Of a stretch of DNA of 12,349 nt, positions 1,389-4,053 are shown piece by piece. The notes beneath the pieces were generated by a model. The model had not been told where the DNA came from, did no database searches, and saw nothing but the letters and a program-made list of their open reading frames with translations. The DNA comes from Candidatus Helarchaeota ASGARD archaeon Hel_GB_B (GTDB lineage: Archaea; Asgardarchaeota; Lokiarchaeia; Helarchaeales; HEL-GB-B), in assembly GCA_005191425.1 (NCBI GenBank), contig SUPR01000097.1, forward strand, positions 1 to 12,349, read 5' to 3'. The translations under genes were made by a program, and so were the position numbers. Each line of letters begins with the position of its first letter. Positions within the stretch are counted from its first letter, which is position 1.

Positions 1389-2063
1389 TTTTATTTTAAA
1401 TTTTGATAGATTTTCCTAATTTTAATTTATTTAATTAATTTCTCGTATCTGATTTTTATCCTTAAAATATTAATTTGAGATATGGAAATATTTCCTTAAC
1501 ACCATTAAATAATTTTTGATATTTATTTTTTTAGTTTGATTTTTTTATTTTATATCTTTACATAATTGTACCAAGAGAAAAATCCACGGAAAAAATTTGT
1601 TATTAGATACTTGAATCTATGAATTATTTAGAATTTTATAAAAATCTCTAAAAAATTATTAACGGTTTGAACATTTGTTATAATATAAAGTCGCGACATA
1701 TATCTTATCAATTGGTAAAATGTATTATTTATTAATACAAAATTAGTCTAATTTAATCACAAATAGTTTTTAAATAGAATATTGTTTTAATTTTCATAAT
1801 AATAAATAAAAAGAATGTAAAAAATAGTTGTTATTAAATTAAAAAAGATAAATGTGGATTATTTAATTAAGTACTTAACCAATATAGTGATTTAAAATCA
1901 TTTTTTTACAAATTGAAATTAATAAGATAACTATTTTAATCTTATAATTTAATATATATGTCCTAGATAATATCTACATTAAAAATCATCTAAAAGATAA
2001 ATTAAAAAATTAATAATGAATTTAATTACAAAAACTCTTTAAATATTAATATACCATTATTTT

Positions 2064-2621
2064 ATGAATAAAAATTACGAGATGAAAAAAATGGAAGGAG
2101 ACTTTCAGAAAGTCTATAAAATATGCTTTTTAGGAGATCCAGCAGTTGGTAAAACATCAATAATAATAAGACATACTGAAAAAAGATTCGAAGATACATA
2201 TAAATTGACAATTGGAACAGATATTTCAGCAAAATTAATGCAAGTTGAAGATAAAAACATTTATTTAATAATATGGGATATTGGGGGGCAAGAACGCTAT
2301 CAAATTTTACGAGAAAGTTATTTACAAGGGTCATTTGGGGCAATAATTGTATTTAGCATTTCTGATAAAGAATCTTTTAATCATGTTAGTGATTGGCTAA
2401 ACGAATATTGGAAGACTTGTGGAAGATTACCTGTTTTAGTCCTTGCGAATAAAATTGATTTAAAGGATGAAAGGGTCGTTGATGATGAAGAAATTAAGAA
2501 AAAATTTGAAGAATTAGGAATTCAATATTTAGAAACATCTGCAAAAACAGGTGAAAATGTTGATAAGGCTTTTGAGTTAATAATACAAAAAATTTTTAAA
2601 GAAGAATCAGAAAAGAAATAG
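2064..2621 (+). CDS. Rab-like small GTPase (Ras superfamily), no C-terminal prenylation motif
   Basis: G1 GDPAVGKT, G2 TIG, G3 WDIGGQ, G4 NKID, G5 ETSAK. RabF-like stretches IGTDI, YLIIW, RYQILR, YLQGS, IVFSIS. Ends ...KEESEKK with no Cys. The true start could also be the in-frame ATG at 2082 or 2091. Confidence 0.95.
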   Translation: MNKNYEMKKMEGDFQKVYKICFLGDPAVGKTSIIIRHTEKRFEDTYKLTIGTDISAKLMQVEDKNIYLIIWDIGGQERYQILRESYLQGSFGAIIVFSISDKESFNHVSDWLNEYWKTCGRLPVLVLANKIDLKDERVVDDEEIKKKFEELGIQYLETSAKTGENVDKAFELIIQKIFKEESEKK

Positions 2622-2794
2622 ATTTTATATCTTTATTTGCAATTTATTCATTGATATCTAAAATATCTTGATGTTTATATACAAATTTAAGGTAACTATA
2701 TCATTTTTCGTCTTCATTTTGAAAATTTTATCCTTTATATTAAAAAACTATATTCAAAAAATTTTTTAATAATAATAAAATTTTAATGTTAAAG

Positions 2795-2802
2795 TTTAAT
2801 TA
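2795..2802 (+). promoter_or_regulatory. Possible TATA box (TTTAATTA, preceded by purine-rich AAAG as a BRE-like element) for the tRNA gene
   Basis: Lies about 24-31 nt upstream of the tRNA 5' end at 2826, the expected archaeal spacing. The AT-rich background makes this weak. Confidence 0.3.
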
Positions 2803-2842
2803 AAATTAAACATTCAAAAAATAATGCGCCATTAACTCAGCC

Positions 2843-2879
2843 ATTGTTAGAATATACTTAAACTATTCTACAACTGAAT
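2843..2879 (+). other. tRNA intron 1 (37 nt), non-canonical D-loop position 17/17a
   Basis: Central helix TCAG (2837-2840)/CTGA (2874-2877), 3-nt bulges CC|A (2841-2843) and AT|T (2878-2880), and inner hairpin TTG-t-TAGAATA/TATTCTA-CAA. Cutting after the second nucleotide of each bulge restores a typical archaeal D-loop AGCCTGGACA. The outer helix is only 1 bp (C2836-G2881), so the BHB is relaxed. Confidence 0.85.
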
Positions 2880-2901
2880 TGGACAGAGTGCCAGCCTTAT
2901 A

Positions 2902-2953
2902 AGAGCACATTGCGTGTTCAGGAATTGGCTGTACTTTGCACATGCTCTAAGTG
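2902..2953 (+). other. tRNA intron 2 (52 nt), canonical position 37/38
   Basis: Strict hBHBh': anticodon stem CCAGC/GCTGG, central helix CTTA (2896-2899)/TAAG (2948-2951), bulges TA|A (2900-2902) and TG|A (2952-2954), inner helix GAGCA (2903-2907)/TGCTC (2943-2947). Confidence 0.93.
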
Positions 2954-3024
2954 AGCTGGAAGTCAGGGGTTCGAAGCCCCTATGGCGCATAATTTTATAA
3001 AAAATATAACGAAAGGTCATAAAA

Positions 3025-3915
3025 ATGTTAAAAGTGGTGGGAGGCTCATCCGCAAAACACATAGCATTTGAAGTAGCTAAAGAATTAAATACCGAATATA
3101 TTATGGTAAATACTAGGAAATTTCCTGACGGAGAAAAATATATAAGAATATTAGATGATCACATTAAAGGAAATTCTTATGCCGTTATTCAATCAATGTA
3201 TAGGACTCCTGACGAATATTTAATGGAATATTTTTTTATAACAAATGTTCTTAAAACACATGGAGCTGAAAAGATCATATCATTTATCCCATATTTTCCT
3301 TATGCAAGACAAGATACTGAATTCAATCCAGGTGAGCCTATCAGTTTTAAAATTATAGCAAATTTAATTGAGAATGCAGGTACAGATATTTTATATACAT
3401 TTGATCCACACCTTCATCGAATTAAATCGTTGTCTGATTTATTTACTATTAAAGCTCAAAATATTTCTCTAATTCCTATGATCGTCCGGTACATTAATAA
3501 TAATTATAATTTAAAGGACGCAATCATAATAGGCCCTGATGAAGAAAGCGAGCAATGGACTCAAATGGCTGCAAATGAAATAGAAATTGAATATGACATA
3601 TTACAAAAAGTTAGACATGGCGATTATGATATAGAACTTAAGCCCAGAAATTTAGAGGTCTTGAATAGAGATATTATTTTAATAGATGATATCATTTCAA
3701 CAGGTAAGACTATGGCTGAAACAATAAAAGTTTTAAAAGACCAAGGGGCTAACAAAATTCTGGCAGCTGCAAGCCACCTATTATTGATTGGTGATGCTTT
3801 AATTAATCTTTATCGTGCTGGTGCCGATGTAATTATCGGCTCTGATTCTATTCCGAGTCCAGTTAGCCAAGTAAAATGTGCACCCTTGATTGCTGAGATT
3901 CTTAAAAAAATGTAG
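3025..3915 (+). CDS. prs: Ribose-phosphate diphosphokinase (PRPP synthetase), compact archaeal type
   Basis: Motifs FPDGEKYIRI, PYFPYARQD, DPHLH, and the PRT loop IILIDDIISTGKTM. The 296-aa length fits archaeal PRPP synthetases. Confidence 0.96.
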   Translation: MLKVVGGSSAKHIAFEVAKELNTEYIMVNTRKFPDGEKYIRILDDHIKGNSYAVIQSMYRTPDEYLMEYFFITNVLKTHGAEKIISFIPYFPYARQDTEFNPGEPISFKIIANLIENAGTDILYTFDPHLHRIKSLSDLFTIKAQNISLIPMIVRYINNNYNLKDAIIIGPDEESEQWTQMAANEIEIEYDILQKVRHGDYDIELKPRNLEVLNRDIILIDDIISTGKTMAETIKVLKDQGANKILAAASHLLLIGDALINLYRAGADVIIGSDSIPSPVSQVKCAPLIAEILKKM

Positions 3916-3941
3916 TTGGTAATTATTATAAAAAATCTTAA

Positions 3942-3957
3942 TTTTTTTATTTTATTT
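3942..3957 (+). terminator. Possible oligo-dT archaeal terminator after prs
   Basis: T-rich run TTTTTTTATTTTTATTT about 25 nt after the prs stop, in the gap between convergent genes. Confidence 0.3.
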
Positions 3958-4053
3958 GACTTTTACAAATATTTTAAAATAATCTTGGACAACATTCTTG
4001 AACTTTTTTATTTAAGCAATAAATTAATAAACACTTGAATAATAATATCCGTC

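Follow-up and report, generated by a model that had tools for sequence, protein, structure and literature searches.

Introduction

Multi-intron tRNA genes of the Thermoproteales were reportedly described by Marck and Grosjean in 2003 and by Sugahara et al. in 2008. A first-pass annotation of the DNA considered here still named the Thermoproteales and similar lineages as the groups best known for such genes; that view is outdated, and in the current literature it is Asgard archaea that mark the extreme in tRNAs with several introns, overlooked ones in the D arm among them (PMC11291895; bioRxiv 10.64898/2026.10.13.758758). Valentin-Alvarado et al. (2024; PMC11291895) found 92 to 95% of the tRNA genes of Atabeyarchaeia and Freyarchaeia to be interrupted, often at noncanonical sites, with extra introns that tRNAscan-SE missed. 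A preprint by Goswami et al. (2026; bioRxiv 10.64898/2026.10.13.758758) presents a motif-free census of 90 Asgard genomes; according to its accessible text, 30% of the intervening sequences in the focal families had been missed, mostly in the D arm, the missed sequences lie at bulge-helix-bulge (BHB) boundaries far above chance and were gained repeatedly, and two full-length paralogues of the splicing endonuclease EndA are the rule.

Outside the Asgard archaea, the pre-tRNA-Glu(UUC) of the euryarchaeon Methanopyrus kandleri combines a D-loop intron with a relaxed (HBh') motif and a strict canonical intron at position 37/38. Both introns are cut in vitro by the (αβ)2 EndA of A. pernix, which bears the L1/CSL loop, and the mature tRNA has been seen by RNA-seq, while the EndA of M. 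kandleri itself is without the L1 loop and cuts the HBh' intron poorly (Kaneta et al. 2018, PMC5829648). The same study already reported (αβ)2 EndA with an L1 loop from Asgard archaea. The multi-intron tRNAs of the Thermoproteales have multiple noncanonical BHB and HBh' introns and a heterotetrameric EndA with a Crenarchaea-specific loop (PMC4090602). Among eukaryotes, the nuclear tRNA-Ile(UAU) of Cyanidioschyzon merolae is described, in the accessible part of PMC9602550, as having three introns, in the D arm, the anticodon arm (in its loop), and the T arm, and as being processed by TSEN.

Here, we describe a gene for the same isoacceptor, tRNA-Ile(UAU), with introns in the D arm and the anticodon loop, in a window of 12,349 nucleotides (contig SUPR01000097.1 of assembly GCA_005191425.1) from the archaeon Candidatus Helarchaeota Hel_GB_B. 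Its intron pair, one relaxed HBh' motif in the D-loop and one strict motif at 37/38, is that of the M. kandleri gene, with the differences that the D-loop intron lies at 17/17a here and at 20b/21, on the other side of G18-G19, in M. kandleri and that the EndA alpha subunit found here has the loop that the M. kandleri enzyme lacks. The Thermoproteales belong to another phylum, and the D-arm sites listed for them in the review PMC4090602 are 20/21, 22/23, and 25/26, not 17/17a. With the Asgard genes of the two papers cited above, the present gene shares the phylum, the multiple introns, the missed D-arm intron at a BHB boundary, the two full-length EndA paralogues, and a putative lineage-specific gain. 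Those papers, as far as their accessible text goes, focus on Jordiarchaeia and Atabeyarchaeia, and the main text of the census is without Helarchaeales or Lokiarchaeia; their median intron length is 22 to 23 nt, compared with 37 nt here, and neither this gene nor its orthologue series is described in their main text. The split tRNA-Ile(UAU) is one more instance of a published phenomenon, hidden Asgard D-arm introns, rather than something novel in kind. As a well-controlled example of how introns turn over by lineage in the tRNA genes of Asgard archaea, it offers an intron that co-varies in a congener and an empty site in the sister family. The first-pass annotation had also seen a bearing on the ancestry of the eukaryotic TSEN complex; the tRNA-Ile(UAU) case leaves what is known of that ancestry unchanged.

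Results

A tRNA-Ile(UAU) gene interrupted in the D-loop and the anticodon loop

The gene occupies 164 nt of the forward strand (2826-2989, +), starts with GCGCCAT, and ends with ATGGCGC-A; CCA is not encoded at its 3' end. Exon 1 (2826-2842, +) supplies tRNA nt 1 to 17, namely, the acceptor 5' strand GCGCCAT, U8 and A9, the D-stem 5' strand ACTC, and A14 G15 C16 C17, and thus ends in AGCC; its assignment comes from the sequence and from the ARAGORN cloverleaf of the spliced product. Intron 1 (2843-2879, +) is 37 nt long and lies in the D-loop between nt 17 and 17a. Exon 2 (2880-2901, +), which begins with TGGACA, supplies nt 17a to 37, with T17a G18 G19, the D-stem 3' strand GAGT, G26, the anticodon-stem strand CCAGC, and the loop bases C T TAT A. 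It is followed by the 52-nt intron 2 (2902-2953, +) at the canonical position 37/38 and by exon 3 (2954-2989, +), which supplies nt 38 to 73: A38, the anticodon-stem strand GCTGG, the variable loop AAGTC, the T arm AGGGG-TTCGAAG-CCCCT, the acceptor 3' strand ATGGCGC, and the discriminator A. Exons 2 and 3 were likewise assigned by ARAGORN.

With both introns cut out, ARAGORN returns a perfect 75-nt tRNA-Ile(tat) with a full cloverleaf, in which the anticodon TAT stands in a standard 7-nt loop and A14, G18 G19, the T-loop TTCGAAG, and the discriminator A are all present. When only 2843-2879 is removed, the program reports the same tRNA-Ile(tat) with a 52-nt intron after nt 37; when intron 1 is kept in, it finds no tRNA at 2826-2989. 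A blind search, in which up to three BHB-compatible deletions were combined in every possible way over the 164 nt, put the same intron pair at the top rank. In the window as it stands, no tRNA was called by ARAGORN in its default mode, by ARAGORN with introns, or by Rfam at the gathering score, and RF00005 gave a partial match only, of 21.6 bits. The first-pass annotation had claimed a 37-nt intron at 17/17a besides the canonical one and had warned that standard annotation could miss the gene; the cloverleaf of the spliced product and the blind search agree with the former, and the failed calls of ARAGORN in both modes and of Rfam with the latter. The span that it gave, 2835-2959, covers both introns but is shorter than the whole gene.

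The tRNA gene is a GC-rich patch in an AT-rich window (22 to 32% GC). It stands between a Ras-family small GTPase gene directly upstream (2064-2621, +; Pfam Ras, E = 2e-48), which is typical Asgard gene content, and the ribose-phosphate pyrophosphokinase gene prs beyond it (3025-3915). The assembly comprises 3.54 Mb with 28% GC and is 93.7% complete, and the 15 runs listed for positions 2000 to 4000 of the window are DNA-type vent and sediment metagenomes, with no RNA run among them. Inspection by eye revealed no C/D-box motifs in either intron.

A relaxed bulge-helix-bulge motif around the D-loop intron

In any BHB, the exon bases at -5 to -2 of the 5' cut pair with the intron bases at -5 to -2 of the 3' cut. 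For intron 1, this central helix H is formed by T12 C13 A14 G15 (2837-2840, +) and CTGA (2874-2877, +). It is flanked by two 3-nt bulges, C16-C17-A at 2841-2843 (CC|A) and A-T-T17a at 2878-2880 (AT|T), each with its predicted cut after the second base. The inner helix h' (2844-2873, +), as given by the MFE fold, pairs 2844-2854 with 2864-2873 in 10 bp, with T2848 bulged and a 9-nt loop, and the outer helix consists of one pair, C11:G18. A strict hBHBh' motif has outer and inner helices of at least 2 bp each; with its 1-bp outer helix, intron 1 belongs to the relaxed HBh' type. The register, with cuts after the second bulge base, was checked on the canonical intron of the same gene, and in both introns H consists of four Watson-Crick pairs, and the junctions that reconstitute the cloverleaf lie in 3-nt bulges.

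Much of this arrangement follows from BHB geometry, which leaves an intron that follows nt 17 no choice but to build H from nt 12 to 15. T12 and C13 double as D-stem bases in the mature tRNA, so that each of them can serve either the splicing fold or the mature D-stem, and the D-stem would form only after cleavage or in equilibrium with it. The outer helix is near-absent and has no room to evolve: its 3' strand would have to consist of G18 G19, two bases fixed by tRNA function. The central helix of U12 to G15 and the 1-bp outer helix had been recognized in the first pass, and the sequence register and the MFE fold agree with both. The mutual exclusivity of the splicing structure and the D-stem, also claimed there, holds insofar as U12 and C13 are shared, but it is not a special feature of this gene, since the geometry forces it on any intron after nt 17.

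The motif is rare by chance. When the criterion was an H of 4 bp with at least four contiguous inner pairs at the boundaries of intron 1, 8 of 20,000 dinucleotide shuffles of the insert (0.04%) matched, and in the whole 164-nt gene only three (p,q) pairs passed, two of them being the two introns. When the insert was placed at each of the 62 remaining positions of the mature tRNA, a 4-bp H arose at one only. The unconstrained MFE fold of the pre-tRNA reproduces the D-loop BHB (H, bulge, and h') exactly, with z = -4.6. Enforcing both BHBs gives a fold 7.5 kcal/mol above the MFE, and once the canonical intron is removed, 0.5 kcal/mol separates the D-loop BHB fold from the lower MFE.

Conservation and co-variation in related genomes

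The closest genome, a congener (G001, same genus), whose prs protein and EndA alpha subunit are 72% and 78% identical to those of the source genome, has a syntenic tRNA-Ile(UAU) gene upstream of prs with a 35-nt intron at identical junctions (AGCC|A...A|TGGA). Its inner helix, TTGCAAAAGG/CCTTTTGTAA versus TTGT(T)AGAATA/TATTCTACAA in the source genome, differs by four double compensatory changes and one wobble-compatible change (G:C to G.U), with no disruptions, and the loops differ as well. Helix H is kept as T.G-C:G-A:T-G:C, the sequence CTGG in the congener turning T12:A into a T12.G wobble; the MFE fold of the congener precursor is without helix H, and the BHB fold lies 4.2 kcal/mol above that MFE. 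The exons co-vary too, from C2:G71 to G2:C71 in the acceptor stem and from A10:T25 to G10:C25 in the D-stem, and these compensatory changes indicate that selection sees the spliced product. The co-variation comes from a single species pair, the two distinct intron-bearing sequences being those of one genus. When metagenome and genome collections were scanned for the gene with its D-loop intron, only identical copies of the source genome and the congener were returned (two metagenome matches).

In the sister family, three genomes have orthologous tRNA-Ile(UAU) genes with an uninterrupted D-loop, located at L022:1378-1539(-) in G002, at L021:1442-1604(-) in G006, and on the minus strand of L024 in G004. 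The D-loop of G002 reads ACTC-AGCTTGGACA-GAGT, compared with AGCC|TGGACA at the junction in the source genome, and relative to these compact D-loops the 37 nt represent an insertion that is confined to one lineage and lies where it was predicted. The intronless orthologues were registered by hand; MAFFT put their exon 1 onto the 3' end of intron 1. All three have an insertion of about 29 to 32 nt with approximate boundaries in the variable region. In G004, the anticodon stem is interrupted as well, by 31 nt (CCAG|...|CC), and part of the 5' exon recurs as a stray copy about 70 nt upstream of the gene.

Orthologues are thus kept in five genomes of two families, each of the five with the canonical intron. 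Among the remaining families of the class, no orthologue was found by an exon 3 pattern with up to three mismatches or by an exon 2 pattern with up to one mismatch. A tRNA-Ile(UAU) gene was not found in the third family (f3: G003 and G005), so that the pattern at 17/17a may reflect either gain or loss of the intron.

Two EndA paralogues and a proposed splicing route

The genome encodes two EndA paralogues, each with PF01974 and PF02778, of 192 aa (alpha, contig C36) and 198 aa (beta, contig C98, L002:1474-2070, minus strand), and two EndA matches were found in five of six relatives of the order. The alpha protein is nearest to the catalytic subunits of the (αβ)2 enzymes of Aeropyrum, Sulfolobus, and Pyrobaculum (E = 2.5e-42 for 3P1Z_B to 5e-30). 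Its catalytic triad Tyr/His/Lys is present, in that AVYEHGPGIDHAPF...VRKKF aligns to the A. pernix alpha subunit, and the catalytic His matches the position at which entry 3AJV has a His-to-Ala mutation. It also has a 10-residue L1/CSL insert, GKPLGIRKPKSTDFDRP, which aligns to GQPLDVEKPRGADFEGP with K48 on A. pernix K44, the conserved lysine of a loop whose role is described in PMC5829648; this insert is conserved in four alpha orthologues and absent from beta. The beta protein has Ala at the position of M. jannaschii His125 and retains the Tyr and Lys, and the His is also lost in the beta proteins of G001 and G002. Beta is full length, with both domains, and its similarity to the EndA of M. 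kandleri and M. jannaschii exceeds that to the beta subunits of Crenarchaea, which are short (E = 0.0005 to 0.006 for 2ZYZ_A, 3P1Z_A, and 3AJV_A).

These features support the assignment of a putative (αβ)2 broad-specificity EndA with an L1 loop to the source organism, where homology and the study of Kaneta et al. (PMC5829648) point to a heterotetramer; a broad-specificity EndA had been suggested in the first pass from the tRNA alone, and at the sequence level the triad, the L1/CSL insert with K48 in alpha, and the His-to-Ala replacement in beta are in line with it. The Helarchaeota group would appear to share this type of enzyme.

In the splicing route that we propose, the primary transcript would carry two protein-spliced introns, and the heterotetramer would cut each of them in the two 3-nt bulges of its BHB, with alpha, the bearer of the L1/CSL loop, as the catalytic subunit. 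An RtcB-type ligase would then join the exons, as in established archaeal tRNA splicing. The canonical 37/38 intron would offer the enzyme a strict motif with the anticodon stem as its outer helix, and the D-loop intron a relaxed HBh' motif in which U12 to G15 pair with the intron bases CUGA and the 10-bp intron hairpin serves as the inner helix. As the outer helix of the D-loop motif is essentially missing, a loop-bearing, broad-specificity enzyme would be needed.

Decoding of AUA

ATA amounts to 42.5 per 1000 codons in the 13 ORFs of the window, where it is the eighth most used codon, and no second copy of tRNA-Ile(UAU) was found in the genome. The enzyme TiaS makes agmatidine on tRNA-Ile(CAU). 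TiaS (PF08489) was found neither in the source genome nor in 41 sampled genomes of the class (30 of them of high quality), and across the phylum it was found in 70 of the 121 genomes sampled, in a clean family-by-family pattern. Its lack in the genome and the class makes the C34-agmatidine route unlikely, and the class probably relies on tRNA-Ile(UAU) for AUA, as is the case in eukaryotes. The gene described here is probably the only AUA decoder of the organism and is very likely essential. As three standard detection settings miss this probable sole decoder, genome-derived tRNA inventories of such MAGs must be badly incomplete. In the literature, we found no paper that states a class-wide lack of TiaS or a switch of AUA decoding to the UAU anticodon.

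Alternative explanations

We consider it highly probable that the locus is a real, single-copy tRNA-Ile(UAU) gene, an AUA decoder, with two protein-spliced introns. The least improbable alternative concerns the exact position of the D-loop cuts. The insert might be removed at other bonds, with junctions shifted by 1 or 2 bases or cut on a different fold, which could yield a mature D-loop such as AGC|TTGGACA, identical to the D-loop of G002; the alignment to that genome (AGCTTGGACA) fits equally well a cut made one base earlier on both sides, the 1-bp outer helix leaves the 3' bulge poorly defined, and the accessible text of the 2026 census reports many D-arm insertions without a canonical motif or with imprecise boundaries (bioRxiv 10.64898/2026.10.13.758758). 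However, a shift by one base loses the 4-bp central helix, in that C11:G pairs and T12 then faces T, and the predicted register is shared by the source genome and the congener despite their diverged helix sequences. We therefore regard displaced junctions as improbable.

Two further explanations were considered. The perfect cloverleaf, the compensatory changes in the acceptor and D-stem, which bespeak purifying selection on the spliced product, and the presence of orthologues in five genomes of two families are all difficult to reconcile with a decaying or silent pseudo-tRNA, with the reading of AUA left to a different, hidden tRNA gene of the same genome. Such a second decoder is conceivable, because about half of the tRNA set expected of this 93.7%-complete MAG was not located, but the missing TiaS in this genome and in the 41 class genomes speaks against the agmatidine route, and on this evidence a pseudo-tRNA is very improbable. 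It is also hardly credible that the 37 nt escape splicing and form an oversized hairpin in the D-loop of the mature tRNA, as output of the tRNAscan-SE type would draw it. Annotators do leave such stretches inside "mature" Asgard tRNAs; nevertheless, a 47-nt D-loop would break the elbow geometry of G18-G19 and the T-loop, the exact BHB geometry of 4 bp and two 3-nt bulges, rare by chance, is conserved between species, and the orthologues of the sister family work without the insert.

The canonical intron as a possible folding switch

Within the reading of two protein-spliced introns, the canonical intron has a feature of its own. Its helix H pairs CTTA (2896-2899, C32 to A35) with TAAG (2948-2951), the outer helix is the 5-bp anticodon stem, and the inner helix is GAGCA/TGCTC, also 5 bp, which makes it a strict hBHBh' motif (5 + 5 bp). 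This canonical BHB is not in the MFE fold of either precursor, that of this genome or that of the congener. Instead, a 12-nt anti-exon stretch in intron 2 (2927-2938, +) pairs in the MFE fold with 2884-2896 of exon 2, that is, with nt 20a to 32, which comprise the D-stem 3' strand, G26, and the anticodon-stem 5' strand. The anti-exon helix rivals the D-stem, the anticodon stem, and hence the canonical BHB (-53.3 versus -60.3 kcal/mol), and it leaves the D-loop BHB intact.

In four orthologues, 42 of 48 cells of this helix are paired (12, 11, 10, and 9 of 12 per orthologue, with one double compensatory change), compared with 12 to 22 when the partner is slid, where the helix was derived from one of the sequences later counted in the pairing test. 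Shuffling of the intron produced 12 of 12 pairs in 2 of 5000 cases. The anti-exon helix may be a folding switch that orders the two splicing events, which is no more than a hypothesis. The anti-exon stretch would keep the D-stem 3' strand and the anticodon-stem 5' strand off their mature partners; this would make U12 and C13 available to the D-loop BHB of this genus, and nt 40 to 43 to the variable-region intron of the sister family. A more ambitious joint reading would make the canonical intron a built-in folding switch that renders the noncanonical intron cuttable, with the noncanonical cut made first, and would combine this with the class-wide lack of TiaS, so that AUA would be decoded, as in eukaryotes, by a tRNA-Ile(UAU) whose gene always bears an intron; we offer it as a speculation that is more doubtful than convincing at present.

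Noncanonical introns in other tRNA genes of the genome

ARAGORN with introns called 14 tRNAs in the 93.7%-complete genome, and an anchor built on the T arm and acceptor stem located about 22 tRNA loci. Of the latter, about six are uninterrupted, about five have a canonical intron only, and at least 10 need removal of a noncanonical intron. The wider survey of tRNA introns that the first-pass annotation had envisaged is to this extent realized, as a partial one of some 22 loci, to which a relaxed T-arm/acceptor anchor added no true loci. A scan for GC islands, tried as another tRNA locator, returned 2536 islands and was of no help. Of the tRNA set to be expected, about half is presumably hidden by interruptions of the T arm or acceptor stem or is unassembled. 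BLAST found no further copies of intron 1 in the genome, and at the level of sequence similarity there is no sign of intron transposition.

D-arm insertions recur among the loci that were located. The tRNA-Pro(GGG) gene (C107:13220-13359, minus strand) has a 37-nt intron after nt 17, with CTAG/CTAG as helix H, and an intron in the anticodon loop, and the tRNA-Arg(UCG) gene (C139:5448-5573, minus strand) likewise combines a D-loop intron with a canonical one. A 36-nt intron lies at 16/17 in tRNA-Val(GAC) (C165:954-1064, minus strand), and a 26-nt intron lies in the D-stem of tRNA-Ile(GAU) (C163:8134-8234, plus strand); tRNA-Val(CAC) (C107:59236-59337, plus strand) has a 29-nt D-arm insert of uncertain position. 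The three D-loop introns of 36 to 37 nt in this genome, compared by eye, are alike only in their AT-richness.
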